Assembly: GCA_035712245.1 (NCBI GenBank)
Contig: DASTBC010000310.1
Coordinates: 1-54,776 of the forward strand
Length of the DNA: 54,776 nucleotides
DNA from: Candidatus Eiseniibacteriota bacterium
GTDB lineage: Bacteria > Eisenbacteria > RBG-16-71-46 > SZUA-252
Direction of reading: 5' to 3'
Below the pieces are notes generated by a model. It saw only the letters and a program-made list of their open reading frames with translations, did no database searches and had not been told where the DNA came from. A program made the translations under genes and the position numbers. This document shows, piece by piece, positions 29,116 to 44,020 of this stretch. Numbering within the stretch: the stretch's first letter is position 1; each line of letters begins with the position of its first letter.

Positions 29116-30900
29116 CTACCGAATCAGCACCATCTTCACGCGCGCTTCCGTCTTCGTGGCCGTTGCCGCGCGTGCGTAGTACGTGCCCGAAGGCGCCTCG
29201 TGCCCCTGATCGTCCCTGCCGTCCCACACCACGCGATGCGTCCCCGCGGGGAAGTGCGAATCGGTGATCGCGCGGACGAGCTGCCCGCGCGCGTTGTACA
29301 CGCGGACCGCGACGCGCCCGGCACGCTGCGTGGTGAAGGTGATCGACGTGCCCTCCTTGCGGAACGGGTTGGGCACGTTCTGGCGCAGCGTCAGCTCGGG
29401 AGCGGGACCCGGAGCGGCATTGGTATTGAGCTTCGGATAGGCGAAACCGCGGAACCGGCGGCCGGCCCCGTTCGAGTACGCCTCGAACTGGAGCGGAACG
29501 TTCCTTCCCGCGTAGCCATGCGAGCGGAGCAGCGCTTCCACCTCGGCCCGGTCCCACGAGACGTCGATCGCGTGCTTCCCCGCGATGCGCCGGTCGGTGA
29601 AGACCGGGAAGACGTTCCCCGTCGCCGCATCCCCGATCGGCAGCAGATCCTCGAGCGTGGGGCTCGGCACGAAGTTGAGACGAAGGCGCACGCCCTCGAG
29701 CGGCCCGTCGAACGACGAGCACTGGTATCCCGCCGCGATCGTCTCGTCGGGGAAGCTGAGCGTGACGGTCATCTTTCCGGCCGAGGAGCCCGGCTTGTTG
29801 GGCTGGACCTGGACGGTCATGGGAAGCGGGGTGACGCAGTTGTAGATGTGCTGCCCCCGCCAGACATGGGGCCCGTTCTGCATGGACGTGAAGAGGAAGT
29901 AGTTGAACGGGATTCCCTCGGGCGTCTGGTGCACGTACGAGGACACGTCCGGGTCGGAGTCCGCGGTGAGATCGTCCACCGCGATCGAGCACTTGGCCTT
30001 GGTCTCGAGGTGGAGCATCCAGATGTCCGGGAGCTCGTTCTCGTTCTCCGCCTTGGGGGCGTGGTAGTAGATCACCTTGCCGTCGCTCGACCAGTCCGGC
30101 GAGCCATGGAACACGGGCGCCGGGTTCAGCTCCGCAAGCGTGATGACGTGCGGAGAAGGCGTACCGAGCTCCGCGATGGCGATGCAGGGCGGACCGAACA
30201 TGTTCGTCATGAACGCGATCCGGCTCCCGTCGGGGTTGAACGCCGGAGCCTGCTCCGCGAACCGGTCGTCGAACGTGCGCCGCGTGGGCGTGCCCACGGC
30301 CGGGAACACCTCGATCGTGTACAGGTCGAGGCTCAGCCCCGAGGCGCTCGATTCGAACACGAGGCTTCGGCCGTCCGGGCTCCAGTCGGGCCGGCGAAGA
30401 CTCACGGCAGGGTCTCCCGGAACGACCAGGATCCGGTCTCCGACCGGCGTGGCGGCCTCCGCGATGTCGTCGGAGATCGCGTACTCCTGCACGTAGATGG
30501 CCGGACTCAGACCGAAGAAGTTGGTCTCCACGTACGCGAGGAAGCGCCCGTCCATGCTCCACGCCGGATCGAGGTAGGACACCATGCCGGTGGGATCCCG
30601 GAGCATGGGGACCCGCGCCTCGTTCAAGGGCATGTTCACCCCCGCGCGCGCGACGTTCCGGTGGAGCCAGATCTCGCGGGTCCCTTCCCTGCGGGGAACC
30701 GGGCTGCGCGTGGTGAAGCAGAAGTAGCGCTCCACTCCGTCGGTTGCCGGGAGCGGACGCCAGGTCCCGGTCTCACACCGGTTGTAGATCTGGCTGTCGA
30801 TGGTGATGGGGTCGAACGAGCCGCGGAATCCGGCATCGGCCGGAGACGGCGCGAGAATCGAGAGGAGTCCGAGAGTTACGAGAGCGCGGATGCGGAACAC
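29116..30900 (-). CDS. Secreted TolB-like (PD40/WD40-like beta-propeller) protein with FlgD-Ig/T9SS-type C-terminal domain
   Basis: GTG at 30900 directly after AAGGAGGAGG gives signal peptide (M)FRIRALVTLGLLSILAPSPADA (alternative ATG at 30939). PD40-like repeats: AWSMDGRFLAY, DWSPDGRSLVF, AFNPDGSRIAF, DWSSDGKVIYY. C-terminus (approx 29119-29394) is ...VPNPFRKEGTSITF...VAVRVYNARGQLVRAITD...GTYYARA...VKMVLIR. Confidence 0.85.
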   Translation of the reverse strand: MFRIRALVTLGLLSILAPSPADAGFRGSFDPITIDSQIYNRCETGTWRPLPATDGVERYFCFTTRSPVPRREGTREIWLHRNVARAGVNMPLNEARVPMLRDPTGMVSYLDPAWSMDGRFLAYVETNFFGLSPAIYVQEYAISDDIAEAATPVGDRILVVPGDPAVSLRRPDWSPDGRSLVFESSASGLSLDLYTIEVFPAVGTPTRRTFDDRFAEQAPAFNPDGSRIAFMTNMFGPPCIAIAELGTPSPHVITLAELNPAPVFHGSPDWSSDGKVIYYHAPKAENENELPDIWMLHLETKAKCSIAVDDLTADSDPDVSSYVHQTPEGIPFNYFLFTSMQNGPHVWRGQHIYNCVTPLPMTVQVQPNKPGSSAGKMTVTLSFPDETIAAGYQCSSFDGPLEGVRLRLNFVPSPTLEDLLPIGDAATGNVFPVFTDRRIAGKHAIDVSWDRAEVEALLRSHGYAGRNVPLQFEAYSNGAGRRFRGFAYPKLNTNAAPGPAPELTLRQNVPNPFRKEGTSITFTTQRAGRVAVRVYNARGQLVRAITDSHFPAGTHRVVWDGRDDQGHEAPSGTYYARAATATKTEARVKMVLIR

Positions 30901-31059
30901 GCCTCCTCCTTGCCGGGAACGACCAGGGGACACTATCACAAACGTGCGGCAAGATCAATGGAAGCGTCTGGGAACACAGCGGAAAACGCGCTATACTGAT
31001 AGGTCCGAGTTCGGCTGGTTGTTCGCGGACCGTCGCACCCCCTCGAGGGCCGTGTCCTC

Positions 31060-34000
31060 ATGACCTCGGACCCCGGACAGATCTCCCATTATCGCATCGA
31101 GTCCGTCCTCGGCCAGGGCGGGATGGGAGTGGTCTACCTCGCCGAGGACCTGCTCCTGCGCCGCCGCGTCGCGCTCAAGTTCCTCACCCCGAGCCTCTCG
31201 CGCGACGCCGACGCCCGGCGCCGCCTCCTCAACGAAGGGAGAGCCGCGGCGACGCTCGGCCATCCCAACGCCGCGGTCCTCTACGAAGTCGGAGCGGACG
31301 GGGACGACCTCTTCCTCGCCATGGAGTACGTGCCCGGCGTGACGCTGAAGGAGCACGCCGCCGAGGGCGCGCTTCCCTGGGTCGAGGTCGTGGACGTCGC
31401 GCTCGGCATGCTGGCCGCGCTGCGTGAGGCCCACGCGAAGGGGATCGTCCACCGCGACATCAAGCCCCAGAACGTCCGGCGCACGCCGGACGGACGGATC
31501 AAGGTGCTGGACTTCGGGCTGGCGAAGGTCCTGGGCGGGAGCACCATCACGCGCGAGGGCTCCCTCCTGGGCACGGTCGCGTACATGTCGCCGCAGCAGG
31601 TCGTCGGCGAGGAGGTGGACGGCCGCACGGATCTGTACTCGACGGGAGTCGTGCTCTACGAGCTCCTCACCGGCCGCGCTCCGTTCACGGGCGATCAGGA
31701 GGTCGCGGTCGCTCACGCGATCCTCCACGAGGATCCAATCACGGTCCGCGAGCTCAATCCGGAGGTTCCCGCCGAGCTCGAGCACATCGTCTTCAAGGCC
31801 ATGATGAAGCGTGTCGCCTCGCGCTATCAGACGGCGGAGGAGATGGCCGAGGACCTGATGCGGTTTCGGGAGCACGACCGCCGGCGCCGCGCCGGGATCC
31901 ACGAGGAGCTGGATCTCCTCGCCACGCAGGAGGTGTACGCGGTCCGGCGCGAGCGGTTCCTGGCGCCGCTCGTCGGGCGCGACTCGGAGATCCAGAGACT
32001 CCGCGGATTCCTGCGGGAGGCCCGATCGGGCGAGGGCATGGCGGTGTGCCTCGCGGGCGAGGCGGGCGTTGGAAAGACGCGGCTGCTCCATGAGCTGCAG
32101 CAGGCCTGCCGGCGCGAGGGGGCGCGCGTTCTCGTCACGCCGTGCCTCTTCGGCGGCACGACGAGCTCCTACTTCCCGTTCGCGGAAGCGTTCCGTCACT
32201 ACTTCTCGCTCCGCGGCGTCACCGGCGCGGCGGCGCTCCAGAGCTTCCTCTTCGACCGCGCGCCCCGCCTCGCGGGATCGCTCCCCGTCCTGAACCGGTT
32301 CCTCCGGTTCACGTTCGCCTCCAACGGGCCCGCGAGCGAGGAGGAGCTGTGGGAAGTGCTGGATCAGCTCGTCACGTTCATCGCCGAGGAGCGCCCGCTC
32401 GTCCTCGTGGTCGAGGACCTCCAGTGGGGGGACGACGCGTCGATCCGTCTCTTCCACTTCCTCGCGCAGCGGGTCGCTCGCCGCCGGTTGCTCCTGGTCG
32501 GGAGCTACCGCCCCGAGGAGATCCACGCCGAGCCGGGAGCGAGGCCGCATCCGCTGCCCGCGATGCTCCGGATGCTGGGACGCGAGGAGCGATTCGAGCG
32601 CATCGAGCTCGGCCGTCTCCGCCGCGAGCACGTGAGGGAGATCCTGGATCGCCTCTATCCGGCGCACGAGTGGGGCGAGGACTTCCCCTCGCTGCTCTTC
32701 CGGGAGACGGAGGGGAATCCCTTCTTCATGGTGGAGATCCTGAAACTGCTCGCCGGCGAGAAGGTGCTCGAGGAGCGCGACGGCCGCTGGGCGCTTCGCA
32801 CCACGGTGGACCGGATCTCGATCCCGGAGAAGGTCTTCGACGTCGTGATGCAGCGGCTGGGCCGCCTCGGCCCGCGCGAGCGCGAGATCTTGGAGCTGGG
32901 CGCGGTGGAAGGGGACGTCTTCCACTCGGGAACGATCCTGCGCGGGCTCCGCATCGAGCGGATGGCGCTCCTGAAGACGCTCCAGTTCCTGGAGCAGATC
33001 CACCACCTGATCCACGCGGCGGGTCCGCAGTACCACTTCGACCACTCGAAGATCCGGGAGATCCTCTACGAGAGCATCCCGCCGGAGCTGCGGATCGAGT
33101 ACCACACCGTCGTGGGGCAGTTCCTGCGCGAGAGCTTCGGGGAGTCGGAGGAGTACGCGGGGATCATCGCGCACAACCTGCTCGCGGCGGGACTTCGCGA
33201 GGAGGCGATCCCGTTCCTGACCCGGGCGGCCGCGATGGCTTCGAGGCTCTTCGCGCACGCCGACGCGATCCACTACCTGGACCAGGCCGAGCGCGTGCTC
33301 CACGAGCTCTACCCGCAGAGCCCGCCGCTCGAGCGCGTGCGCGAGCTCTGCGAGATCCGCGAGCGTCGCGGGGACGAGGAGTACGCGAGCGGCCACTACC
33401 GGGAGTCCCTCGCGAGCTACGAGCTCGCGCTCTCGCTCGACGCGGCGACCGGCGATCCCGTGCGCGCGGCCTCCCTCACCAAGGCCGTCGGCCGCATCCA
33501 GTACCTGCTCGGACGCACGGCCGAGTCGCAGCGCTCCTACGACAAGGCGATCGCCGACTACACGGAGATCGAGGCGCGCGCGCGCGCGGCGGACGATGTC
33601 GAGCAGCTCGCGGGCGCCTGCCGCGAGCTCGGCAAGCTCCATTTCTTCCGTGGCGACCCGGAACGCTCCCGCCGGTACATCGAAGAGACCATCGCGCTCG
33701 CCGACCGGATCGGAGCGCCCCGGATGAAGTCGGCGGCGCTCAACAATCTCGCGGGGATCCACTACCAGCGGGGCGCGCTCGAGGAGGCGCTGGCGGCCCA
33801 TCGCGCGTCGCTCGCGATCCGCCGCGAGACGCGGGACCCCGGCGAGATGGCGCAGACGCACAAGAACCTCGGCATCACGCACTACCGGCTGGGGGAGCTG
33901 ACGGACGCCGAATCGCATCTCGAGGAGGCGCTGGGTCTCTATCGCAAGACCATGGACCGGCGAGGCGAGGCGGTCACGCTCCGCCACCTCGGAAACGTCT

Positions 34001-35049
34001 TCTACGAGCGCGGAGATCACGTGGGCGCGCAGCGGCACTGGGAGGCATCGCTCTCGCTCTGCCGCGAGCTCGGAAATCACGACGACCTCTGCCGGTGCCT
34101 CAACAATCTCGGGGTCCTCCACTTCGAGCGGGGCCACTACGCGAGCGCGCTCCGGCTCTACCAGGACGCGCTCGAGACGTCGGCCGCGATCGGCTCGAAG
34201 GACTCGATGGTGCCGGTCTACGTGAACCTGGCCGAGCTCCACCTGAGTCTCGACCAGCTCGCGCGCGCGGAGGAGAATCTGGGACGGGCCGAGGAGCTGG
34301 CGCGCTCGATGGGCATGACGCCGGCGCTCTGCGAGGTTCACGCGCTCCGGGGAATGCTCCTCGCGGAGCGCGGATCGCTCGAAACCGCCCGCCGCGAGGT
34401 CGAGCGCGCCTCCGAAGCGGCCGAGCCGACGGGGCACGTCGAGAATCTGGTGCGCGCGCTCCTCGCCCAATCCACGGTGTCGATCGCGTCGGGAGAGTAC
34501 GGGGAGGCGCGCCGCCTCGCGCACCAGGCGCGCGACCTCGCCCGATGGTCCCGCATGCTCCACTTCGAGCTGCGCGCGGCCTTCGAGGTCGCGCGGGCGT
34601 GCTGGAAGGAAGGGGCCACGTGGGACGCGGCGCGCGAGCTGCGGGAGCTCGTTCCGCGCTCCGAGGAGGGCGGATTCCGCCCGCTCGCCGCGCGCTCCCG
34701 CGACCTGCTCGGGAGAATTCTCTGGGAAACCGGGGACCGGGAGGGCGCGGCGTTCGAGTTCGTCCGCGCGGCCGACCAGATGAAGGAGATCATCGCGACG
34801 CTCTCCGAGGACGACCTGCGCTCGTTCGTGCACCATCCCGAGTGGAAGGCGGCGATCGGAAACCTGCTCGACGCGCTGATGCGGCTTGGACGGAGGGACG
34901 AGGCCCTGGGGTATCTGGTTCCGCTCGGCGTGGGGAGCTGCGAGATCGGCGTCGCCCAGTCAGCGCCCGCGGGGCCGGATGCCCGTTGGGACGAGACGCG
35001 CGTGGACGCCGGCGTCGCGGGCGGCGTGCCGGAAGGGACGGACTCGTGA
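31060..35049 (+). CDS. Ser/Thr protein kinase fused to AAA_16/STAND-type ATPase and long TPR array (1329 aa); first gene of the coupled kinase-adaptor-protease operon
   Basis: Hanks motifs GQGGMGVVY, ALK, HRDIKPQNV, DFGLAK, YMSPQQ. P-loop LAGEAGVGKT with ...LVLVVEDLQWGD... Many TPR_12-like repeats (...NNLAGIHYQRGALEEAL..., ...KNLGITHYRLGELTDAE..., ...NNLGVLHFERGHYASAL...). Confidence 0.9.
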   Translation: MTSDPGQISHYRIESVLGQGGMGVVYLAEDLLLRRRVALKFLTPSLSRDADARRRLLNEGRAAATLGHPNAAVLYEVGADGDDLFLAMEYVPGVTLKEHAAEGALPWVEVVDVALGMLAALREAHAKGIVHRDIKPQNVRRTPDGRIKVLDFGLAKVLGGSTITREGSLLGTVAYMSPQQVVGEEVDGRTDLYSTGVVLYELLTGRAPFTGDQEVAVAHAILHEDPITVRELNPEVPAELEHIVFKAMMKRVASRYQTAEEMAEDLMRFREHDRRRRAGIHEELDLLATQEVYAVRRERFLAPLVGRDSEIQRLRGFLREARSGEGMAVCLAGEAGVGKTRLLHELQQACRREGARVLVTPCLFGGTTSSYFPFAEAFRHYFSLRGVTGAAALQSFLFDRAPRLAGSLPVLNRFLRFTFASNGPASEEELWEVLDQLVTFIAEERPLVLVVEDLQWGDDASIRLFHFLAQRVARRRLLLVGSYRPEEIHAEPGARPHPLPAMLRMLGREERFERIELGRLRREHVREILDRLYPAHEWGEDFPSLLFRETEGNPFFMVEILKLLAGEKVLEERDGRWALRTTVDRISIPEKVFDVVMQRLGRLGPREREILELGAVEGDVFHSGTILRGLRIERMALLKTLQFLEQIHHLIHAAGPQYHFDHSKIREILYESIPPELRIEYHTVVGQFLRESFGESEEYAGIIAHNLLAAGLREEAIPFLTRAAAMASRLFAHADAIHYLDQAERVLHELYPQSPPLERVRELCEIRERRGDEEYASGHYRESLASYELALSLDAATGDPVRAASLTKAVGRIQYLLGRTAESQRSYDKAIADYTEIEARARAADDVEQLAGACRELGKLHFFRGDPERSRRYIEETIALADRIGAPRMKSAALNNLAGIHYQRGALEEALAAHRASLAIRRETRDPGEMAQTHKNLGITHYRLGELTDAESHLEEALGLYRKTMDRRGEAVTLRHLGNVFYERGDHVGAQRHWEASLSLCRELGNHDDLCRCLNNLGVLHFERGHYASALRLYQDALETSAAIGSKDSMVPVYVNLAELHLSLDQLARAEENLGRAEELARSMGMTPALCEVHALRGMLLAERGSLETARREVERASEAAEPTGHVENLVRALLAQSTVSIASGEYGEARRLAHQARDLARWSRMLHFELRAAFEVARACWKEGATWDAARELRELVPRSEEGGFRPLAARSRDLLGRILWETGDREGAAFEFVRAADQMKEIIATLSEDDLRSFVHHPEWKAAIGNLLDALMRLGRRDEALGYLVPLGVGSCEIGVAQSAPAGPDARWDETRVDAGVAGGVPEGTDS

Positions 35050-36155
35050 GCGCATCCCCTGCGGGCAAGGCCTCGCGAGCCTGCGCTCGAGGGACGGCTC
35101 TGGCGCTGCTGGCGCTCCTGGCCCTCCTGGGATCGGGATGCTCGGGAAAGGACGCTTCGGTTCCGGCGGCCTCGGCCGGAGGGGCAGGCGCGGCGGGCGC
35201 CCGGTCCGCCGGTTCGGTCGCGAAGGTGCACGTGGCGCCCGCGCGTCCCGCGCAGGGGAACGAGACCTCGTTCCAGACGTTCCTCGAGGCCGAGCGCGAG
35301 GCCGAGCTGGTCGCCGAGACCGACGGAGAGATCGTCGCTCTTCGCGTGCGCGAGGGCCAGCGCGTCCGGGAGGGGGACACGCTCCTCGTGATCGACGACC
35401 GGGACGAGAGGCTCGCGCTCCGCCGCGACCAGGCCGAGCTCGCCTGGTCCCGTTCCCAGGTGGAGCGGACGCAGCGCCTCAGCAAGGACGGGCACGTGAG
35501 CGTGACGGAGGTCGAGCAGGCGAAGCTCCAGCTCGACAAGGCGGAGGCCGCGGTCGGCATCTCCCAGGTCGCGCTCTCGCGGTGCGCCGTCCGCGCCCCG
35601 ATCGCGGGCCTCGTGTGGATGGTGCGCGCCGAGCCGCACCATCGAGTCTCGGTGGGACAGCCCCTCCTGCGCGTCACGAACCCGGATCGTCTCCGCGCGT
35701 CGGCCTATCTGCCGGCCTCGATGCGCGGACGCGTTCGCGCGGGCTCGCGGGTGCGCCTCGAGCCCGCGCGGGGAGGCGAGGCGATCGAGGCGGAGGTGAG
35801 CCGCGTCGATCCTCTGACCGATCCCGCGAGCGGCACCTTCAAGGCGGTGGCGCGCTTCCGGCGGCTCCCGTCCCATCCGGAGGCGGGCTCCGAGGTGCGG
35901 TTCGTCGTGCCCGGCCCGGCCGACGAGGCCGCCCTGCTCCTCCCGATGAACACCATCCTCCTCGCCGACGGGGATTCCACCTGGGTCTGGCGGTGCGACG
36001 GCGACCGCGTCCGGCGATCGCCCGTCCTCCTCGGTCCGACGCGAAGGGACGGATTCGAGATCGTGTCCGGACTCCCGAGCGGCGCGCGCGTCGTGACGGG
36101 GAGCGATCGACCGCTCCGGGACGGCGCCGTCGTGGAGGTCGTGGACGCGCGGTGA
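35046..36155 (+). CDS. HlyD/RND-type periplasmic adaptor (membrane-fusion protein), probable lipoprotein
   Basis: GTG at 35046 overlaps the kinase TGA (GTGA). Signal ...ALALLALLALLGSG-C. Lipoyl-like ...AETDGEIVALRVREGQRVREGDTLLVIDD..., coiled-coil segment, ...VRAPIAGLVW..., then beta-barrel and MP-like C-terminus. Confidence 0.85.
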   Translation: MSASPAGKASRACARGTALALLALLALLGSGCSGKDASVPAASAGGAGAAGARSAGSVAKVHVAPARPAQGNETSFQTFLEAEREAELVAETDGEIVALRVREGQRVREGDTLLVIDDRDERLALRRDQAELAWSRSQVERTQRLSKDGHVSVTEVEQAKLQLDKAEAAVGISQVALSRCAVRAPIAGLVWMVRAEPHHRVSVGQPLLRVTNPDRLRASAYLPASMRGRVRAGSRVRLEPARGGEAIEAEVSRVDPLTDPASGTFKAVARFRRLPSHPEAGSEVRFVVPGPADEAALLLPMNTILLADGDSTWVWRCDGDRVRRSPVLLGPTRRDGFEIVSGLPSGARVVTGSDRPLRDGAVVEVVDAR

Positions 36156-38206
36156 AGGGGCACCCGAAGCTTCGAGACGGGCTCGTGATTCGCAAGGTGG
36201 CCGAAGGAGACGACGTCGCCTATACGGTCTGCGACGCCGCCCGGAACCAGTACTTCCGCATCGACCCCTACACGCGCCTCGTCGCGGCGCATCTCGACGG
36301 CCGCCGGTCCCTCGCCGAGGTCTCCCGGCTCTGCCAGGACGAGATGCCGCACAACGATCTGTCGCTCCCCGTCGTGGAGGAGGCGGTCCACGATCTCGAC
36401 GCGATCGGCCTCCTCGAGGATCCGTACCGGAAGAACCTGCTGCTCCTCGAGCGGGCCAAGGCGAGCCGTCCCCGTCTCATGGATTTCTTCCACAACATGC
36501 TCAACTGGCAGGTGGGAATCTGGGATCCGGATCCGTTCCTGAACCGGACCGTCGACCGCGTGCGGTGGCTCTTCCATCCGGCGCTCGCGCTCGCCGTGAC
36601 GGCGGGGCTCCTCTGGAGCCTGTGGCTCGTGTTCGTGAACCGCCATCGGGTGAGCTTCGACCCCACGCACCTCCTCGGGATCGGAGACGGCGGGAGCGCG
36701 CTCGGGGGCATCCTGATGCTCCTCCTCATCCTCACGGTCGTGGGAGCGGTGCACGAGTTCGGGCACGCGTACGCGTGCAAACACTTCGGCGGGCCCGTGC
36801 ACCGGATGGGGTTCATGCTGATGTACTTCGGCCCCTGCTTCTTCGTCGACGTGTCGCATTCGATGCTCTTCGAGAACCGCTGGCACCGGATCTGGGTCGC
36901 CATGGGCGGGATCTACTTCGAGTCGTTCATCACGATCATCGCGGCGGTGCTCTGGGCCGTCACCCCGCCCGAGCTCTACCTCAACGATCTCTCCTACCGC
37001 GTGATGATGATGGGGCTCGTCATGGGGGTGCTCCTGAACCTGAATCCGCTCCTCAAGTTCGACGGGTACTACGTGCTGAGCGATCTCCTCCAGATCAGCC
37101 AGCTCCGCGAGCAGGCGCTCCCGTACGTCCGCAATGTCGTGAAGGGATGGTTCCGGCGGGACGCGGCTCCCACGGAGCGCGTGGTCGGGATTCGCCGCCG
37201 GCGCGCGTATCTGATCTACGGTCTCCTGACCTTCGCGTACTCGTACGTCGTGATCGTGTGCTTCTTCGAGTGGCTCCGCGTGACGCTGGTCGGCGCGTGG
37301 GCCGAGACCGGGTTCTTCCTCACCGCGTGCATGGTCGCGCTCTTCGTCCGGAAGCCCGTGACGAACGGAGTCATGAAGGCCGCCGAGGCGGCGCGCCGTC
37401 CGACGCCACGATTCCTTCCCTGGGCGATCGGGATCGCGGCGATCCTCGTCCTCGCGCTCTTCGTCCGCACGCCGGCCCATGTGAGCGCCGAGGCGCGCTA
37501 CACGAGCTCCGAGCGGGAGGCGATCCGCGCCGAGGAGCCCGGGCGCGTGGCCGCGGTTCTGGTACGGGAAGGAGATCGCGTCTTCCCGCTCCAGGCGGTG
37601 GCCGTGCTCGAGAACGACAGCGTGGTCGCCGCGTGGCAGGGCGCGCTCGTCCGCTCGCGGGAGAGCGCGATGGCGCTCGGGCAGGCCATGGACCGCTCGG
37701 ATCCCGCCCTCTACCGGACCGCGGACGCGCAGGGCCGCGCCGCGCTCGCCGTGGAAGGACGCCTCTCGGAGGCTCGCTCGCGGCTCGTGCTCGCGGCGAG
37801 GGCCGGAGGGATCGTGGTGACGGCGCGCACGGAGGAGCTCCTGGGGGAACGCCTCGATCCGGGAGACACGCTCCTCGTCCTGTCGAACGAGGAGCGATAC
37901 GAGGTCGAGTGCGACGTTCGCGAGACCGACGTCGGATGGGTCGAGGCCGGAGGGAAGGTCGAGCTCCGGATGAGGGGCAACCCGGGACGCAAGCTCGAGG
38001 GAACGGTCGAGCGGGTCTACTCCGTCCCCCGGCGCGGTCCGGAGGGCCGGGCGCGATTCCGCGCGGTGGTGCGGCTCACCGAGCCGGCACCGGACCTTCG
38101 TCTCGGCGAAACCGGGATCGCGCGGATCGAGATCGGAAACCAGAACGTGTACGAGCGGATCGGAAACGTCTGGGCCCGCCTCGTTCGCGCGGACTTCTGG
38201 CTCTGA
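36152..38206 (+). CDS. Fusion protein: PqqD-like N-terminal domain + M50 (site-2-protease family) zinc metalloprotease membrane core + C-terminal HlyD-type adaptor module
   Basis: GTG at 36152 overlaps the upstream TGA (GTGA). HEFGH at 36752-36766 and NLNPLLKFDG (NxxPxxxxDG) at 37037-37066. Multiple TM helices. N-terminal ...YFRIDPYTRLVAAHLDGRRSLAEVSRLC...VEEAVHDLDAIGLLED resembles PqqD/RRE-type domains (inference). C-terminal ...IRAEEPGRVAAVLVREGDRV... to ...GETGIARIEIG... resembles HlyD. Confidence 0.85.
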   Translation: MKGHPKLRDGLVIRKVAEGDDVAYTVCDAARNQYFRIDPYTRLVAAHLDGRRSLAEVSRLCQDEMPHNDLSLPVVEEAVHDLDAIGLLEDPYRKNLLLLERAKASRPRLMDFFHNMLNWQVGIWDPDPFLNRTVDRVRWLFHPALALAVTAGLLWSLWLVFVNRHRVSFDPTHLLGIGDGGSALGGILMLLLILTVVGAVHEFGHAYACKHFGGPVHRMGFMLMYFGPCFFVDVSHSMLFENRWHRIWVAMGGIYFESFITIIAAVLWAVTPPELYLNDLSYRVMMMGLVMGVLLNLNPLLKFDGYYVLSDLLQISQLREQALPYVRNVVKGWFRRDAAPTERVVGIRRRRAYLIYGLLTFAYSYVVIVCFFEWLRVTLVGAWAETGFFLTACMVALFVRKPVTNGVMKAAEAARRPTPRFLPWAIGIAAILVLALFVRTPAHVSAEARYTSSEREAIRAEEPGRVAAVLVREGDRVFPLQAVAVLENDSVVAAWQGALVRSRESAMALGQAMDRSDPALYRTADAQGRAALAVEGRLSEARSRLVLAARAGGIVVTARTEELLGERLDPGDTLLVLSNEERYEVECDVRETDVGWVEAGGKVELRMRGNPGRKLEGTVERVYSVPRRGPEGRARFRAVVRLTEPAPDLRLGETGIARIEIGNQNVYERIGNVWARLVRADFWL

Positions 38207-38208
38207 GC

Positions 38209-40224
38209 ATGACCCGGCACCCTTCCCGTCCACGCCGAGACCGCTCGTCCAGGGCCCGGACCTCCGGCGACATCCTGGCCGCCGTCACCACGCGCGCGCT
38301 CGCGCTCCAGGAGGTCGCGCTCGCGCTCGCCGAGCACGAGACTCCCGAGGAGATGGCCGCGGCGCTGCTGCCCACCGTCGCGGGAGCGGTCGGAGCTCGC
38401 GAAGCCGCGCTCCTCGTCTCGGAGCCGGGGGATGCGTTCCGCATGGCGGCGACCCATGGCGTCCCCGGGGATCTTGCCGGAGCGGTCGAGGAGAGCGCGG
38501 TGGAGCAGGCGGCCGCGAGCGTGGCGGCGAACACAGGGCATCCTCTCCTGGGCGCGGAGATCGAGCAGGACGAGTCCTTCGTCGAGTGGCGGGAGCGTCA
38601 GGCTCCCCCCGAAGGAGAGCCGAGCGAAGGGGACGGCGAGGGATCGGCGGCTGCCGGGGCGCGGCCCTACTTCGAGCTCTACGCGCCGCTTCAGGCCCAC
38701 GACGCGGTGGTCGGCGTGCTCGCCCTGGGACGGAGGGCCGACGGGCAGGACTTCACCGACGAGGATTTGATCTTCATCGAGCACGTGGGATCCGGCGTGG
38801 CCGTGGCGCTGAGCCGGAGCCATCTCGACCTGGAGAACCGGCGGAAGATCGAGATGCTCCGTGCCCTGGCCCGCTTCACCGGCGAGATCACGTCGACGCT
38901 GGACCTGAACCGCGTGCTCCACACGGTCGCCAACACGACCGAGGCCGTCATCGATCGCGACCGGGCCCTGGTCGTGCTCGTCGAGGCGGGCGGCCTCAAG
39001 GTGCGCGCCGTGAGCGACAAGGTCACCGTCGAGGTGAACGAGGCCGAGGTGCTCGGGGTCCGGGAAGTCCTCGACGTGATCCACCGCCGGAAGGGGCGCC
39101 TCCGTGTCACCGTGGAGTCGGTGGCCGACGAGTCATCCGAGGTTCCCGACCGGGAGGTCTTCGCCCGCTACTTCGAGGCGGGGGAGATGCAGTCGATCCT
39201 GGTCCTTCCGCTCCAGGACGAAGAGGGCCTCCTGGGCTACCTGGTCCTCGAGTCCCGCGACCCGGCCGGCTTCGGGGACGCGGCCGCCGAGGAGTTCCTG
39301 GGAATCCTGAGCGGATCCGTGTCGGTGGCGATCCGGAACGCGGATCTCTACCGCCGCGTGCCGATGGTCGGCTTTCTCGCCCCCATCGCCGGGCAGAGGC
39401 GGCGGCTCGCGGCCATGAGCCCGAACCGGCGCCGGATCATCCTCGGAGCCACCGCAGCGGCGACTCTCTTCCTCGTGGCCGTGCCGCTTCCGCGCCACGC
39501 CGCGGGACCGGCGCTCGTCCGGCCCTCCGAGGTGCTCCCGGTCGTCGCGCTCGCCCCGGGCATCGTCGAGCAAGTCTACGCTTCGGGAGGGGATGAGGTC
39601 GTGGCCGGCGCCCCCATCGCCGCGCTCCGGAACCGGGAGTCGGACGCCCGCCTCGCCGAGGCGGAGGCCGAGCTGTCGATCGCGGAGCGCCGCGCGGCCG
39701 AGGCCACGGAACGGCGCGACCCCGCGGAGGCGCGGCGCTGGTCGCTCCAGGCGAAGAACCTCTCCGGGTGGATGAGCTACGCGCGATCCGAGGGAGCCGA
39801 CCAGCGGCTCGCGGCACCCGTCACGGGCTCCATCCTCACGCCGCGGATCGGCGAGCGCGTCGGAGAGATGATGGAGCGCGGCGACGCGCTCTGCGAGATC
39901 GCCCGGCTCGACCCGGTCCACGTCGAGGTCCAGGTCTCCGAGGAGGACATCGGGGATCTCGCGCCGGGTGGAGTCGCGCGCGTGAAGGTGCTCGCGTACC
40001 CCGATCGCCAGTTCCGCGGCAAGGTCCTGACCATCGCGCCCGAGGGATCGGGTCCCGCCGGGAAACCTTCTTCGTTCACCGTGACGGTCGAGTGCGCGAA
40101 TCCCGATCTGGATCTCCTCGCGGGAATGACCGGGCGCGCGAAGGTCGAGGCGGGATGGACCCCCTGGCTCTGGAGCACGCTTCGCCCGCTCGGACGCGCG
40201 CTGCGGATGAATTTCTGGTTTTGA
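38209..40224 (+). CDS. GAF-GAF-TM-HlyD protein (cytoplasmic tandem GAF-like sensor domains fused to a periplasmic adaptor module)
   Basis: ATG at 38209, 2 nt after the upstream TGA. Two GAF-like segments (...AALLVSEPGDAFRMAATHG...VGVLALGRRADGQDFTDEDLIFIEHVG... and ...VLHTVANTTEAVIDRDRALVVLVE...LGYLVLESRDPAGF...). Single TM helix RRIILGATAAATLFLVAVPLP. HlyD-like ...VVALAPGIVEQVYASGGDEVVAGAPIA..., coiled coil, ...LAAPVTGSIL.... The C-terminus ...RMNFWF echoes ...RADFWL of the preceding protein. Confidence 0.8.
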   Translation: MTRHPSRPRRDRSSRARTSGDILAAVTTRALALQEVALALAEHETPEEMAAALLPTVAGAVGAREAALLVSEPGDAFRMAATHGVPGDLAGAVEESAVEQAAASVAANTGHPLLGAEIEQDESFVEWRERQAPPEGEPSEGDGEGSAAAGARPYFELYAPLQAHDAVVGVLALGRRADGQDFTDEDLIFIEHVGSGVAVALSRSHLDLENRRKIEMLRALARFTGEITSTLDLNRVLHTVANTTEAVIDRDRALVVLVEAGGLKVRAVSDKVTVEVNEAEVLGVREVLDVIHRRKGRLRVTVESVADESSEVPDREVFARYFEAGEMQSILVLPLQDEEGLLGYLVLESRDPAGFGDAAAEEFLGILSGSVSVAIRNADLYRRVPMVGFLAPIAGQRRRLAAMSPNRRRIILGATAAATLFLVAVPLPRHAAGPALVRPSEVLPVVALAPGIVEQVYASGGDEVVAGAPIAALRNRESDARLAEAEAELSIAERRAAEATERRDPAEARRWSLQAKNLSGWMSYARSEGADQRLAAPVTGSILTPRIGERVGEMMERGDALCEIARLDPVHVEVQVSEEDIGDLAPGGVARVKVLAYPDRQFRGKVLTIAPEGSGPAGKPSSFTVTVECANPDLDLLAGMTGRAKVEAGWTPWLWSTLRPLGRALRMNFWF

Positions 40225-40350
40225 CATGACAGAAATGAGGAATTTCCGCGGCGCGCACGCCTCGCGATTCCAGGACTCGAAGAGCGGTCGCGCTCGTGGA
40301 AGCAAGCGGCGCTCGGGGTTGCGGCCTGCGCGATGCGCCCGCGGCTTCGC

Positions 40351-40364
40351 GGCACGCCGGTTGC
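40351..40364 (+). promoter_or_regulatory. Sigma-54 (-24/-12) type promoter upstream of small peptide gene 1
   Basis: GGCAC-GCCGG-TTGC: GG (40351-40352) and GC (40363-40364) have the canonical 12-nt register of TGGCAC-N5-TTGC. It lies 63 nt upstream of the ATG at 40427. A sigma-54 activator gene lies about 0.7 kb downstream. Confidence 0.65.
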
Positions 40365-40426
40365 GATAGCGTCGGGATGTCGGCCGGCGTCACGGTGACG
40401 CCCGGCTCCCAACGAGGGAGGGTGTC

Positions 40427-40558
40427 ATGGCAGCGAAGAAGATCCAGGCCAAGTCGAAGAGCAAGACCGCCGCGAAGAAGGGTGCCCGCAAGGTTTCGCC
40501 GACGACGCCGCGTGGAATGGCGCGCCGGCAGTTCTATACGCCGCCGTCGAGCGAGTAG
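40427..40558 (+). CDS. Small Lys-rich peptide, 43 aa: MAAKKIQAKSKSKTAAKKGARKVSPTTPRGMARRQFYTPPSSE (candidate precursor/substrate peptide; not in the ORF track)
   Basis: ATG preceded by GGGAGGG 5 nt upstream. Own sigma-54-like promoter and hairpin plus T-tract terminator. Its paralog at 40912 has an identical 18-aa C-terminus despite 6 synonymous codon differences and no non-synonymous ones. Confidence 0.75.
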   Translation: MAAKKIQAKSKSKTAAKKGARKVSPTTPRGMARRQFYTPPSSE

Positions 40559-40583
40559 CCTGACACCCTCGATCGACGAGGAC

Positions 40584-40621
40584 GGGCGGACCCGGCAGTC
40601 TCGGGTCCGCCCGATCCTTTT
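40584..40621 (+). terminator. Rho-independent terminator after peptide gene 1
   Basis: 11-bp perfect stem GGGCGGACCCG (40584-40594) / CGGGTCCGCCC (40602-40612), 7-nt loop, followed by GATCCTTTT. Confidence 0.8.
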
Positions 40622-40828
40622 GGAGGACTTCGGGGGCGGACGGCTTGACCGATCGGCTCCATCAACGAGGCAGCTGCCACCGATCGCGCGAGCCGCGGAC
40701 CTTCCTCAACGCCCTCCTCAAAACTGCGGAAATTCATCGGCGAGAGCGACGCGCTCCCGCGTGGGTTCGAGACGGCGTGCTCGCGCGTCTCAAGAGGTTG
40801 CGGCGTTCGATCGGGTGTCTCGCGATCC

Positions 40829-40842
40829 GGCATGAGACATGC
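40829..40842 (+). promoter_or_regulatory. Sigma-54 (-24/-12) type promoter upstream of small peptide gene 2
   Basis: GGCAT-GAGAC-ATGC has the same GG..N10..GC register. Flanks are homologous to promoter 1 (CGGCAyG....TGCGAT...AGCGTCGG...CACGGTG). It lies 70 nt upstream of the ATG at 40912. Confidence 0.55.
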
Positions 40843-40911
40843 GATGACATCCGGAGCGTCGGTCGGGAGCCACGGTGGCTCCGTCCGCGGACCATCAACG
40901 AGGAGGGTACG

Positions 40912-41040
40912 ATGGCTGCGAAGAAGGTGAAGGCCAAGGCGAAGTCGACGAAGGCGAAGAAGGGAACCCGGAAGGTTGCCTCGACCACCCCGCGTGGGAT
41001 GGCCCGCCGCCAGTTCTATACGCCGCCGTCGTCCGAGTAA
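40912..41040 (+). CDS. Small Lys-rich peptide paralog, 42 aa: MAAKKVKAKAKSTKAKKGTRKVASTTPRGMARRQFYTPPSSE
   Basis: ATG preceded by GAGGAGGG. It is the last 42 codons of the otherwise featureless track ORF 40645..41040. C-terminal TTPRGMARRQFYTPPSSE is conserved with only synonymous changes relative to gene 1. Followed by a terminator. Confidence 0.75.
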   Translation: MAAKKVKAKAKSTKAKKGTRKVASTTPRGMARRQFYTPPSSE

Positions 41041-41061: not shown

Positions 41062-41104
41062 GAGGCGGGCCCCGGCGAGACCGGAGCCCGCCTCTTCGTC
41101 TTTT
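41062..41104 (+). terminator. Rho-independent terminator after peptide gene 2 (between convergent genes)
   Basis: Stem GAGGCGGGC-CCGG / CCGG-GCCCGCCTC (41062-41094, one mismatch, 5-nt loop) followed by TTCGTCTTTT. A T-tract is present only on the plus strand. Confidence 0.75.
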
Positions 41105-41130: not shown

Positions 41131-43035
41131 CTAGACCGCGTTCCTCCAGCGGCGCTCGACGTAGCTGCGCAGGATCCTGTCCACGTAGTCGTGGTAGGGA
41201 GCGGGAAGCTTCGGGATGCGCTTCTCGCAGACCCTCCTCGCGCCGCCGACGTCCCCTTCGGCATCCGCGGCCGCGGCGAGGATCCGCAGGAGCGAGCGGA
41301 GTCTCCGGGTGACGACGCCGGTCAGATAGGGCCCTCCGGCGAGCGACCGGGACGCGCGGTCGAGGTCGAAGTCGGCCTCGCAGAACTCGCGCAGGCACTC
41401 CCCCTGGAGGTAGTAGGTCAGGGTCGTACGATCGGCGATCGGCGCGTCGAGCGTTCCTTCCTTCGCCTGCGCCTCCTTGAGCGATCGACCCGCGGCCGCA
41501 ATGTTGAAGCCGTGCCGCCGCAGGTGGGTGACGACCCAGTTGCCCATGCTCCGCTCGCCTCGTTTGGGCTGCGGCACCGCCGTGGCCGTCGCGGGGCGCC
41601 GGAAGATCCGCTCCAGGTCGGTCGCGCCGTTTCCGGCGGTCCCTCCGACGGCGAGCGCGGTGATCAGGTTCTGCAGCTCGCGAATGTTGCCGGGATAGTC
41701 GTGCTCGAGAAGCCTTCGCTCGAGGGACGAATCGAGGCGCAGCTCGGGGGTCCCCATTTCCTCGGCGGCGATACGCGCGAAGTGGCCGGCGAGGACCGGA
41801 ATGTCGCCCTTTCGGTCGCGGAGCGGCGGCACATGGAGCGTGAGCACGCTGACCCGGTAGTAGAGATCGCTGCGGAATCGTCCCGCCTCGACTTCTCCCC
41901 AGAGATCCCGGTTCGTGGCCGCGACCACGCGGACGTCCACCTGGATCGTCTCCTCGCCGCCCACGCGCCGGAAGCAGCCTTCCTGGAGCACGCGAAGGAG
42001 CCGTGTCTGCGCGGAGAGCGGCAGCTCTCCGAGCTCGTCCAGGAAGATCGTGCCGTGGTGCGCCATCTCGAAGAGTCCGCGGCGATCCCGAACGGCGCCG
42101 GTGAACGAGCCGCGCTCGTGGCCGAAGAGCTCGCTCTCGATCAAGTCCTTGGGAATGGAGCCGCAGTCGACCACCTCGAACGGCCCCTTGGCCCTCGGGG
42201 ACATCTCGTGCACCGATCTCGCGAGGAGCTCCTTTCCGCACCCGGTCTCGCCCTGGATCAGGACCGGGCAGCGGGTCGGCGCCACGCTCTGGGCCTCCTC
42301 GAGGAGGCGGAGCATGGCGGGGCTCTCGCCCAGGATGCGCCCGAGAATCGGGTGGGCCGCGCGGAGCTGCCGGAGCCTCTTCGAGATCTGGACCGGCGCC
42401 TTCGAGTGCGTCTCCGGCACCATCGGGTACTGCTGCTCGGCCGGGATATCGGAGAGCGCCGCGGAGGACTCGATCGCCTGGGCGGCGAGCGCCGCGGCGC
42501 GCTCGAGCAGCTCGAGCGTCTCGACGGAGTAGGGCTCGCCGCCGATCCTCGGGCCCACGGCCGCCACGCCGAGGAGGTTCGCGCGCACGACGATCGGGAG
42601 GAGGAAGGCCGCCTCGAGGCCGGCGGCCCAGCGGCGCAGTCTGCCCTCGGGGAGCTGTTCGTACCCTCCGTCGTGACCGGAAACGGGGAAGACCGCGGCC
42701 CCGTCACACTCCGCGAGGAGGCGGTCTTCGTTTCGCGTCAGGACGAGACGGGAGCGGTGCTCGCTGGGCGTCAGTCCGAAGGATACCGTGAGGCCGAGCC
42801 GCCTGCGGCTGGGAGCGTAGAGATAGCCGACCGCATGGGATGCGCCGGTCAAGCCCAGGGTGGAATGCAGGAACCGCCCCAGGATCTCGGAAGGGCGGCT
42901 GGCGCCTAGAAGCGATCGTGCGATTTCGAGGAGCGAGCAGGCGTCGGAGTACTCGCGCGCGAGATCCGGAATCGGTTCGTCCTGTGGAGTCGTGATCTCA
43001 GCCCGCATCCGGCGCCTCACGGGGGACGGGGTCAT
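41131..43035 (-). CDS. Sigma-54-dependent transcriptional activator (bEBP): N-terminal GAF-like domain, AAA+ sigma-54 interaction domain, Fis-type HTH, plus an extra approx 130-aa C-terminal extension
   Basis: ATG at 43035 preceded by GGGAGGGAG. Walker A GETGCGKE, ...ELFGHERGSFTGA... (GAFTGA-loop variant), ...IFLDELGEL..., ...RVVAATNRDL..., ...FRSDLYYRVSV..., ...GNIRELQN.... HTH-like ...HGFNIAAAGRSL.... Confidence 0.9.
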   Translation of the reverse strand: MTPSPVRRRMRAEITTPQDEPIPDLAREYSDACSLLEIARSLLGASRPSEILGRFLHSTLGLTGASHAVGYLYAPSRRRLGLTVSFGLTPSEHRSRLVLTRNEDRLLAECDGAAVFPVSGHDGGYEQLPEGRLRRWAAGLEAAFLLPIVVRANLLGVAAVGPRIGGEPYSVETLELLERAAALAAQAIESSAALSDIPAEQQYPMVPETHSKAPVQISKRLRQLRAAHPILGRILGESPAMLRLLEEAQSVAPTRCPVLIQGETGCGKELLARSVHEMSPRAKGPFEVVDCGSIPKDLIESELFGHERGSFTGAVRDRRGLFEMAHHGTIFLDELGELPLSAQTRLLRVLQEGCFRRVGGEETIQVDVRVVAATNRDLWGEVEAGRFRSDLYYRVSVLTLHVPPLRDRKGDIPVLAGHFARIAAEEMGTPELRLDSSLERRLLEHDYPGNIRELQNLITALAVGGTAGNGATDLERIFRRPATATAVPQPKRGERSMGNWVVTHLRRHGFNIAAAGRSLKEAQAKEGTLDAPIADRTTLTYYLQGECLREFCEADFDLDRASRSLAGGPYLTGVVTRRLRSLLRILAAAADAEGDVGGARRVCEKRIPKLPAPYHDYVDRILRSYVERRWRNAV

Positions 43036-43141: not shown

Positions 43142-44020
43142 TCAGCGCCGGTAGGAGATCCCGAGGAAGAGGGCGACGCCCTCGGCTTCATCCGAGACGC
43201 CCAGGCGTGTCCCCCCGTCGAGCTGGAGGTCCGGTGTGGCGGCGAAGGTGAGCCCCGCGTTCAGAAGAGCCGTCCACTCCCCCTCGGATCGGGGGCGGTG
43301 ACCGGAGGTCCCCTCGAGGAAGCCCGCCAGGCTCCCGACCAGGTCCCGCGCGATGGTCCCCGTGAAGAGCCACTCGACGTGATGCCCGTCCCCGTCCGCG
43401 TCGGGGAGCACGTCCATCTGGGCCATCGTGGCGAGGCCCGTCTCCCAGGGGCCCGAGATCGCGAGCGGCACGATGAGTCCGCCGCCCACCTGCGTCTCGC
43501 CCTCGGCGGTCGGGAACTCGACGTACGGCATCGCGGCCAGCGCGGTGGAGCCGCCGTCGTTGCCCCAGAGGTTCCACTTGAGCCTGGCCGTCAGATTGGT
43601 GGGCCCGGTCTCGCCGTCGGACGTGGACGGGTCCGGGGGCAAGGCCCCCGAGTCCCGTTCCTCGTGGATCGCGTCGAACCCGATCTGGAGGTCCGAACGG
43701 GGCGTGAGGCCGAGCTTCACCAGAAATCCCGCGTACCCGGTCTTGTCGAGGCCCTCGTCGTGCGTCAGGGTCACGGCTTCGACCTCGATCTGGGCGTGGC
43801 CCGCGTCCACCGTGTACGGGCTCTCGGTGAGGTCGGGGCGGTCGGTGCTCATCTCCCGGAGGAGCGCCCGTGGCGTGGGGTGGAAGAGGTGATACCCGGC
43901 CTTGGACGCGCGGATCGCCACGGCCGGGTCGGCGGCCCCGGGCTCCTGGCCCCGGGCCTCGGCCGCCGCGGCGGCGAGAACGACGATCGCGCCGAGGAGG
44001 CATTTGTCGTGACGAAACAC
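43142..44020 (-). CDS. Outer-membrane transporter of the MetA-pathway/phenol-degradation-like family
   Basis: Signal peptide ...CLLGAIVVLAAAAAEARGQE. ...MSTDRPDLTESPYTVDAGHAQIEVE... is the family N-terminal signature as I recall it. Beta-barrel ending ...ALFLGISYRR. GTG start without a clear SD. Confidence 0.75.
   Translation of the reverse strand: MFRHDKCLLGAIVVLAAAAAEARGQEPGAADPAVAIRASKAGYHLFHPTPRALLREMSTDRPDLTESPYTVDAGHAQIEVEAVTLTHDEGLDKTGYAGFLVKLGLTPRSDLQIGFDAIHEERDSGALPPDPSTSDGETGPTNLTARLKWNLWGNDGGSTALAAMPYVEFPTAEGETQVGGGLIVPLAISGPWETGLATMAQMDVLPDADGDGHHVEWLFTGTIARDLVGSLAGFLEGTSGHRPRSEGEWTALLNAGLTFAATPDLQLDGGTRLGVSDEAEGVALFLGISYRR

Follow-up and report, generated by a model that had tools for sequence, protein, structure and literature searches.

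The 54,776-nt contig DASTBC010000310.1 of a Candidatus Eiseniibacteriota bacterium (assembly GCA_035712245.1), analyzed here over its full length and called the window below, carries at positions 36152-38206 on the + strand a gene for a 684-aa protein in which a PqqD-like domain, a site-2 protease (S2P) of the M50 type and a HlyD-type periplasmic adaptor are joined in one polypeptide. Since the window has a GC content of ~68%, long spurious open reading frames (ORFs) are plentiful. A GC3 (codon-position GC) frame plot backs four successive genes on the + strand, at 31060-35049, 35046-36155, 36152-38206 and 38209-40224. The first three overlap by 4 nt at each junction, and the fourth starts 2 nt past the end of the fusion gene. 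The single 684-aa ORF proposed in the initial annotation was thus supported by the frame plot, and it was also confirmed by its homologues.

The N-terminal domain (approximately residues 5-90, nt 36164-36421) was assigned as a PqqD-like winged-helix RRE (RiPP recognition element; RiPPs are peptides that ribosomes make and that are modified after translation). The PqqD family (PF05402) gave no match at E ≤ 10 when searched against the window sequence alone, and it is at the level of the protein family, by profile search and structure modeling, that the earlier PqqD-like assignment holds. PF05402 matches 4 of 24 homologues, and P0100 scores 26.6 at the aligned position against a gathering score of 23.4. 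A profile of the N-domain family aligned end to end with Xanthomonas PqqD (3g2b, E = 2.9e-5), followed by the lasso-peptide RREs of TbiB1 and TfuB1 and then by PaaA and PqqCD. In the AlphaFold2 (AF2) model, the domain shows the β3-α3 topology of RREs (strands 11-18, 21-28 and 33-37, helices 39-47, 54-64 and 72-85) with a confidence score (pLDDT) of ~85-91; the score is 80.5 for the whole protein and ~88 over residues 1-90 when the N-domain is modeled alone. The top Foldseek matches of this domain are all RREs, namely TfuB1 and TbiB1 with their leaders bound, PqqD, ThcOx, CteB and LynD, with target-normalized TM-scores of at most 0.72.

Residues 144-438 (nt 36581-37465) form a polytopic S2P core with a linker transmembrane (TM) helix, seven hydrophobic segments in all. 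The two motifs reported before, HEFGH at 36752-36766 (residues 201-205) and NLNPLLKFDG at 37037-37066 (residues 296-305), lie exactly where they had been placed, and HEFGH stands at the end of the hydrophobic segment 182-200. NLNPLLKFDG, with the Asp that is the predicted third zinc ligand, belongs to a later TM helix. When 24 diverse family members are aligned, the invariant residues are H201, E202, H205, N296, N298, P299, L300, D304 and G305. The NCBIfam model NF041824 (daptide_HExxH, "daptide biosynthesis intramembrane metalloprotease") aligned with residues 18-401 over model positions 12-367 of 379 (E = 1.7e-56) at 192 bits, below the family cut-off of 300, and NF058609 matched at E = 5e-12. 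Pfam Peptidase_M50 (PF02163) scored 22.1 bits on the window protein, below its gathering score of 27.2, and matches 24 of 24 family members at E ≤ 0.01 (best 1.7e-8). A sub-threshold score in a family whose members all match suggests a divergent M50 subfamily. With its active-site motifs intact, the core is predicted to carry out membrane proteolysis.

The C-terminal part (residues 439-684, nt 37466-38203) directly follows the TM segment 420-438 and is a periplasmic membrane fusion protein (MFP) module consisting of a lipoyl domain, an α-hairpin, a β-barrel and, at the C-terminus, an amphipathic helix whose last residues are FWL. Its HlyD-like nature, which had been read from the sequence pattern, was confirmed by Pfam (HlyD_3, residues 547-652, E = 3.8e-13; HlyD_D23, residues 449-624, E = 5.6e-11) and by Foldseek, where the C-terminal 245 residues matched MacA, MexA and AcrA at E ~1e-12. 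When the family profile was compared with PDB, the adaptor module matched MacA at 8.9e-24. The hairpin helices of the AF2 model span residues 489-515 and 518-543, that is ~27 residues per helix. Hydropathy and positive-inside counts predict seven TM segments with the N-terminus inside and the C-terminus outside, so that the PqqD-like domain would be cytoplasmic and the HlyD module periplasmic.

Both neighbors of the fusion gene encode HlyD-type proteins, as had been noted. The gene at 35046-36155 (+) codes for a 369-aa AcrA/MexA-type MFP lipoprotein (TIGR01730 RND_mfp, 188 bits with a cut-off of 94.9; HlyD_3, 1.8e-21) whose signal peptide carries the lipobox LLGSGC. The gene at 38209-40224 (+) codes for a 671-aa protein with two GAF domains, a single TM segment and an MFP module (GAF_3, 1.3e-14; GAF, 3.8e-11; HlyD_D23, 6.7e-18). 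According to hydropathy, its GAF domains are cytoplasmic, the TM segment lies at residues 410-428 (nt 39436-39492) and the MFP module is periplasmic. All three HlyD modules retain the full lipoyl, hairpin and barrel architecture. The two TM-anchored adaptors share a conserved aromatic amphipathic C-terminal helix (nt 38152-38203 and 40180-40221), ending in …RLVRADFWL in the protease fusion (M50-HlyD) and in …RALRMNFWF in GAF-HlyD, and homologues in many loci have similar ends (…WRWIRSQFW and …LWSWFGW).

Downstream of this trio lie features that the initial annotation overlooked, namely two leader-bearing peptide genes, the likely substrates, with sigma-54-type elements, and a sigma-54 regulator. 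The 906 bp between the GAF-HlyD gene and the convergent activator gene hold two tandem paralogous peptide genes. Gene 1 (40427-40558, +; 43 aa, MAAKKIQAKSKSKTAAKKGARKVSPTTPRGMARRQFYTPPSSE) has the ribosome-binding site (RBS) GGGAGGG and orthologues in the related loci L001, L089 and L090, while gene 2 (40912-41040, +; 42 aa, MAAKKVKAKAKSTKAKKGTRKVASTTPRGMARRQFYTPPSSE; RBS GAGGAGGG) is its tandem duplicate, ~483 bp apart. The RBS is strong in both cases. Both peptides end in ...PPSSE. A codon comparison of the paralogues gave 24 identical, 12 synonymous and 7 nonsynonymous codons, and this excess of synonymous changes indicates that they are translated. Gene 1 is preceded at a distance of 77 nt by the sigma-54-type -24/-12 element CGGCACGCCGGTTGCG (40350-40365, +), and gene 2 at 84 nt by a weaker one, CGGCATGAGACATGCG (40828-40843, +), which agrees with 8 of 12 consensus positions and has the correct GG/GC spacing; both elements are of the form GG-N10-GC. 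An intrinsic terminator hairpin with a 13-bp stem (11 GC pairs) and a T run follows gene 1 (40583-40613, +), and an inverted repeat (I6, 14-nt arms, 93% complementary) with a T-rich run forms a terminator hairpin after gene 2 (41062-41094, +). Inverted copies of GCGGAAATTCC at 40237-40249 (GAGGAATTTCCGC) and 40726-40738, a pair (I7) with 92% complementarity located ~100-113 nt upstream of each -24/-12 element, are from their position weak candidates for activator binding sites.

In close relatives, one to three copies of the peptide gene are found at the same place. These copies share a conserved leader of 34 residues, MAAKKIxAKSKxKTAAKKGxRKVSxxTPRGMA(R/K)R, and diverge over their last 8-11 residues (NVYSPPGGVSE, VVTKPSQMID, FGYVAPSGE, YGHLYLDPPID, HAYVTPSYE). 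Pfam and NCBIfam scans of ten small peptides assigned no family, and Rfam revealed no known RNA in the peptide region. A phmmer search with the window peptide against 1.84 billion cluster representatives returned only 8 relatives at E ≤ 1e-3.

The convergent gene at 41131-43035 (-) encodes a sigma-54 enhancer-binding protein with an N-terminal GAF domain, an AAA+ domain and a lid (Sigma54_activat, 2.5e-68; GAF_3, 5e-5). An activator gene occupies the same position in L001 and L002 and in 23 of the 43 loci whose module is flanked by 5 kb or more on each side. These "well-flanked" loci, from about ten phyla and with genes labeled by window-derived seeds, are the basis of the counts out of 43 given below. 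Directly beyond the activator lies a gene for a Phenol_MetA_deg-family outer-membrane β-barrel protein that is not TolC-like (43142-44020, -), and L001, a relative with 66% identity, has such a gene there too. The gene that heads the + strand cluster, 31060-35049, encodes a regulator composed of a Ser/Thr kinase, a STAND-like AAA_16 domain and tetratricopeptide repeats (Pkinase, 6.8e-41; AAA_16, 1.2e-25; TPR_12, 6.4e-38). Such a kinase-AAA_16-TPR gene is also present upstream of the module in L001, and a Ser/Thr kinase gene lies within 5 kb in only 5/43 well-flanked loci; the product of 31060-35049 is possibly a clade-specific regulator of the module. A second Ser/Thr kinase-AAA-TPR protein of paralogous architecture is encoded at 19608-22739 (+).

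To what extent the fusion occurs in other bacteria was assessed by homology. Among 8000 scored candidates, 329 homologues of the 684-aa protein were found at E ≤ 1e-5. They comprise a close clade of 680-685 aa with 49-88% identity and a large set of ~715-aa proteins with 25-32% identity that aligned over the full length. A gene-fusion or frameshift artifact was ruled out, as the full architecture is kept in more than 300 proteins, down to 25% identity. A survey of GTDB, with a single genome for each species, brought up at least 541 relatives, and those listed belong to Acidobacteriota, Planctomycetota, Verrucomicrobiota, Gemmatimonadota, Zixibacteria, Eisenbacteria, Oligoflexia, Lentisphaeria, Myxococcota and Ignavibacteria and include an Alteromonadaceae metagenome-assembled genome. 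Public annotations name the fusion "HlyD family efflux transporter periplasmic adaptor subunit" or "putative peptide zinc metalloprotease protein". Neither the literature nor the family libraries searched (Pfam, NCBIfam, PADLOC) yielded a description of such a protease-adaptor fusion. Because PADLOC matched none of the three adaptor-bearing proteins, the trio is not a catalogued defense system; the regulators gave only generic kinase and AAA+ matches.

The genes of the trio were found to be kept together. A HlyD-only gene lies within 5 kb of the fusion in 39/43 loci, a GAF-HlyD gene in 38/43 and both in 37/43. A Pfam comparison of 40 further ORFs, which left a few short ones aside, revealed no transporter and no outer-membrane factor (OMF) in the window, and jackhmmer searches of ORFs of at least 60 aa with ATP-binding cassette (ABC) ATPase and OEP seeds found neither an ABC ATPase nor an OEP. 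This agrees with the earlier statement that the locus has no ABC, RND (resistance-nodulation-division) or MFS (major facilitator superfamily) pump and no TolC-like factor. MFS fragments lie ~3 kb beyond the activator in L001 and are absent from the window. An ABC-ATPase-like match within 5 kb was seen in 5 of the 43 loci, in no case in the module operon. Two such matches, of 1297 and 1293 aa and flanking L034 and L050, are most likely SMC proteins, two members with SMC_N and SMC_hinge having appeared in the Pfam census of flanking ORFs; the remaining ones are on the opposite strand or not adjacent. In that census of the 83 nearest flanking ORFs, OEP, the TolC family, was the commonest family (6/83) and ABC_tran occurred twice, while RND and MFS families were not among the 25 commonest. 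At least four TM-like segments were present in 14 of 256 neighboring ORFs.

A dedicated search found a TolC-family (OEP) gene next to the module in 11 related loci of other phyla. Verrucomicrobiota, Lentisphaeria, Oligoflexia and Alteromonadaceae are groups with such a neighbor. Four-gene operons of OEP, HlyD, GAF-HlyD and M50-HlyD, in varying order, are found in L024, L029, L040/L052, L072, L073 and L082, and no pump-like ORF lies in or directly beside them. The initial annotation had allowed for an ABC transporter or OMF gene adjacent to the module in relatives and lying outside the window; the OMF is indeed found there in other phyla, whereas an ABC ATPase is rare and a pump is not a conserved neighbor. 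Of the two possibilities it had offered, an M50 core that is itself the inner-membrane partner or a pump and OMF encoded elsewhere, a pump elsewhere is accordingly not favored, while an OMF elsewhere is borne out by the adjacent OEP genes of the relatives. For the window module, linkage in other phyla predicts that the OMF is encoded elsewhere in this genome.

Some loci show additional neighbors. In the Verrucomicrobiota operons L029 (7730-9733) and L072 (7265-9247), an ORF of ~660 aa with no predicted TM segment overlaps the end of the M50-HlyD gene and may encode a further component or a cargo. In L084 and L086, which represent a Phycisphaerae-type subfamily with ~25% identity to the window protein, the module is located among PilZ-domain genes and genes for large proteins with HemolysinCabind and cadherin repeats, and in L086 there is in addition an OEP gene beside the module and one more HlyD gene, a short one; this subfamily may serve the secretion of RTX-like adhesins and not of small peptides. 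SecA_DEAD was the nearest flanking gene in four loci (4/83, with 42 related loci pooled), which probably reflects lineage synteny, the link to secretion being noteworthy.

Small Lys-rich ORFs were also found beside distant relatives of the protease. In an acidobacterial relative, with a protease of 28% identity, the order is GAF-HlyD, HlyD and M50-HlyD, followed by a convergent sigma-54 activator gene on the opposite strand, and the gap between the last two contains small Lys-rich ORFs. The loci of Acidobacteriota have 1-4 tandem precursor-like ORFs of 24-53 aa, Lys-rich, with leaders such as MAKKTLKKxKKxExTKPL or …KGSSKVGNTKLM, of the types …TKPL plus tail and …TKLM plus tail, and with tails of 3-10 variable residues (e.g., IRWGGN, IKLLHS, FGHINQ, WGGGGPIGT). 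Repeat precursors occur in other clades, such as (MKAPLKAN)x4 or five …RKAPL… units. In Acidobacteriaceae, including the cultured Granulicella sp. S190 (L023), ORFs of 82-127 aa start with the leader MAIQKKSLIGN and continue with tandem units of 5-8 aa (ATKNL x14, GGKNL x8, AKGTL x12, LSKNIS, ASALKP x10), and look like multi-core precursors. These 82-127-aa ORFs lie on the - strand in the gap between M50-HlyD and the activator, downstream of TGGCAT-N5-TTGC elements (L023, L039, L047, L064, L069, L078, L046). Of 58 unique peptide ORFs, 34 are preceded at 30-150 nt by a -24/-12 element with at least 9 of 12 matching positions, as compared to 2.6% of random windows (p = 6e-39). The RRE sequence types go with the leader types, a covariation that is consistent with recognition but not separable from shared ancestry.

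When the small ORFs of every locus were compared with one another for conservation, only the Lys-rich family emerged, the other clusters being gene fragments or antisense artifacts. The gaps beside the OMF-containing operons gave a single, weak precursor candidate, a 46-aa ORF (MAIKQAQMNQVKTDANNAIARAKARAAQVNANAHVLKAKRMMNRPK, MAIKQAQMNQ…) at ~7607-7747 (+) in L073, just upstream of the GAF-HlyD/M50-HlyD/HlyD/OEP operon of Alteromonadaceae. In L085 (32% best-segment identity), a called acidic ORF of 51 aa (MDQNEKSIIRIDLTDTQKEQVK…RITPRPFMEI) at 6762-6917 precedes the GAF-HlyD gene, beside a BTAD-AAA_16 regulator, and may be a different type of precursor.

Other features of the window are a full-length tmRNA gene at 1974-2320 (+; Rfam RF00023, 179 bits) and FlgD_ig/Por_Secre_tail-type C-terminal domains, which are type IX-like sorting signals and hint at a member of the FCB group, on three large proteins (22795-26463, +; 26576-29047, +; 29116-30939, -).

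Taken together, our results suggest, with what we consider about even chances, that a conserved envelope module has the fusion protein at its core and, lacking a conventional pump, processes short ribosomal peptides and exports them, with the S2P in the inner-membrane place of the pump and the OMF encoded elsewhere. The proposal builds on the domain identities, the topology, the conservation of the trio, the linkage of the module to an OMF and not to a pump in other phyla, and the leader-bearing genes with sigma-54-type promoters, all obtained by sequence comparison and structural modeling. The S2P is favored as the inner-membrane component because the pump is not a conserved neighbor while the OMF is linked to the module in other phyla.

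In such a module, the activator and sigma-54 would switch on the precursor genes, and the RRE would dock the Lys-rich leader at the cytoplasmic face of the membrane. The S2P core would then cut between leader and tail, and the tail, having crossed at the S2P, would be freed on the periplasmic side into a chamber built as one ring from the three kinds of adaptor module, from which it would leave through a TolC-family channel encoded elsewhere in this genome. Direction would come from the irreversible cleavage and from the polycationic leader being held inside, and not from ATP or an RND/MFS motor, while the GAF domains might gate or regulate the machine. The peptides released would be short and linear, and their likeliest role, judged by the pheromones that Eep processes in Gram-positive bacteria, would be cell-cell signaling.

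Several points weigh against this proposal. As far as is known, the active site in solved S2P structures is reached from the cytoplasmic side, and there is no channel through the membrane. Hydrophobic segments are absent from the window peptides, an unusual trait in substrates of an intramembrane protease, and the second promoter-like element is weak (8/12). Recognizable precursors are confined to the window clade and Acidobacteriota, and the trio is present with no identified peptide in Planctomycetota and Verrucomicrobiota. Moreover, the known S2P-dependent peptides (Eep, YydH, daptides) use separate ABC exporters, and the search for an unlinked pump in this genome covered only the 54.8-kb window.

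The last two points also speak for a conventional system of the tripartite efflux or type I-like kind with an unlinked energized transporter, e.g., an ABC protein of the MacB or HlyB type, and with the fusion acting only as a leader peptidase tethered to the adaptor ring of that pump. OMF genes often lie apart from the systems they serve. In L085 an ABC half-transporter gene is located ~6.5 kb from the module, and in L040/L052 an ABC ATPase gene is on the opposite strand. However, in characterized systems such as the AcrAB, MacAB, HlyBD and EmrAB operons, adaptor genes are almost always found beside the pump gene. Here, three adaptor genes stay together in most loci, and in several lineages the operon includes an OMF gene as well, but a pump is not among the conserved neighbors, and we regard an unlinked pump as unlikely.

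A still less probable explanation is regulated intramembrane proteolysis, in which the S2P would cleave the GAF-HlyD protein, a type II single-pass protein, and the freed GAF domains would control the sigma-54 activator and hence the peptide genes, the shared HlyD modules merely gathering protease, substrate and lipoprotein in the periplasm. The topology of GAF-HlyD, with the N-terminus inside, one TM segment and the C-terminus outside, is that of classical S2P substrates, and the protein is co-conserved with the protease. The activator of the window clade also bears a GAF domain, and in many clades a regulator is adjacent, be it an enhancer-binding protein, a kinase-TPR protein or a BTAD-AAA_16 protein. 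Nevertheless, the protease bears an RRE, a domain whose characterized role is the binding of small-precursor leaders, and leader-bearing precursors adjoin it, while no candidate for a site-1 protease was seen. In addition, the intact adaptor architecture of all three HlyD modules and the TolC-family gene as the most frequent neighbor argue for a conduit rather than a docking device.

That the Lys-rich ORFs have nothing to do with the protease, and encode for instance basic peptides under sigma-54 control that bind nucleic acids or act in stress, beside a trio with another role such as envelope maintenance or the turnover of membrane peptides, would fit their lack of a family assignment, the mere eight cluster representatives related to them and the phyla that keep the trio with no recognizable peptide homologues, but is very unlikely given that the arrangement of protease, peptide and activator genes is kept in two distant clades with proteases of only 28% identity, that a conserved leader with a variable tail or multiple repeats is a design typical of processed precursors, and that RRE types co-vary with leader types.

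More tentatively, and with the balance tilted against it, the module may represent a new class of envelope-spanning secretion system in which an RRE-guided S2P-adaptor, two further adaptors and a TolC-type channel replace the pump driven by ATP or proton-motive force, and in which leader cleavage drives release to the outside. Tripartite systems are defined by their energized inner-membrane transporter, and the exchange of the transporter for a protease with retention of adaptors and channel would challenge this rule, while leader recognition of the RiPP kind would gain a role in export. Unmodified short peptides, some in many copies per precursor, would then be secreted products of Acidobacteriota, Verrucomicrobiota, Planctomycetota and their relatives, and would include the multi-copy penta- to octapeptides of the acidobacterial repeat precursors. 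To our knowledge, peptide signaling in these phyla is essentially unknown; if the peptides are signals as well, sigma-54-controlled peptide communication would be widespread among Gram-negative phyla of soil and water. A single 12-kb locus holds the putative substrates together with the regulator and the promoter, and Granulicella sp. S190 (L023; NZ_LMUD01000023.1, ~211-233 kb) is a cultured carrier of the module.

With respect to known systems, the module resembles MacAB-TolC, AcrAB-TolC and HlyBD-TolC in the MacA/MexA-like fold of its adaptors, of which one is a lipoprotein and two are TM-anchored, and in the TolC-family gene that adjoins 11 loci. It differs from tripartite efflux and type I systems in that a conserved ABC, RND or MFS partner is absent and in that its adaptors are three different paralogues, of which one carries a fused protease and another GAF domains. 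With the transporter missing, the definition of a tripartite efflux system does not apply, and a type I secretion system or a peptidase-containing ABC transporter (PCAT) was rejected since no ABC protein is found among window ORFs of at least 60 aa. PCATs that work with HlyD and TolC couple leader removal to the export of small ribosomal peptides through an adaptor and an OMF, as proposed for the module. They do so, however, with a C39 cysteine protease, a double-glycine leader and an ATPase, whereas the module has an RRE-guided M50 protease, a Lys-rich leader and no ATPase.

Closer in enzymology are the peptidases of the S2P type. Eep, an RseP-type S2P, matures pheromones in Firmicutes, where PptAB is the exporter (PMC4173765, PMC5167397, PMC7564271). 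It makes short linear signal peptides from the ends of small precursors, as the module would, but has neither RRE nor adaptor, acts on hydrophobic substrates in Gram-positive hosts and depends on an ABC transporter. Because Eep-made signals need PptAB, the absence of an exporter here is a point of interest. The YydH/LiaK epipeptide metalloproteases (NF058609) are likewise membrane proteases encoded in small-peptide loci and share weak homology in the HExxH core (E = 5e-12). This identity was rejected, as the module protein scores 45.9 bits with a cut-off of 225 and the locus has no radical-SAM epimerase and no YydIJ-type ABC exporter.

The combination of a PqqD-like domain with an M50 core, which the initial annotation did not recognize as a known architecture, is that of the RRE-fused S2P of daptide clusters, where an RRE-dependent intramembrane peptidase removes the leader (10.1101/2023.03.08.531785). 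The module protein shares with the daptide peptidase MpaP (NF041824) an N-terminal RRE fused to the M50 core and small precursor peptides encoded nearby. Pfam scans of the locus revealed no equivalents of MpaB, MpaC, MpaD or MpaM (aminotransferase, alcohol dehydrogenase, methyltransferase). Identity with a daptide peptidase was rejected, with 192 bits below the cut-off of 300, no tailoring genes and precursors that lack a C-terminal Thr. Unlike MpaP, the module protein has an extra TM helix and a periplasmic MFP module, is accompanied by two partner adaptors and occurs in a Gram-negative setting. The module is best filed as a combination of two known kinds, an RRE-S2P leader peptidase and an adaptor/OMF conduit.

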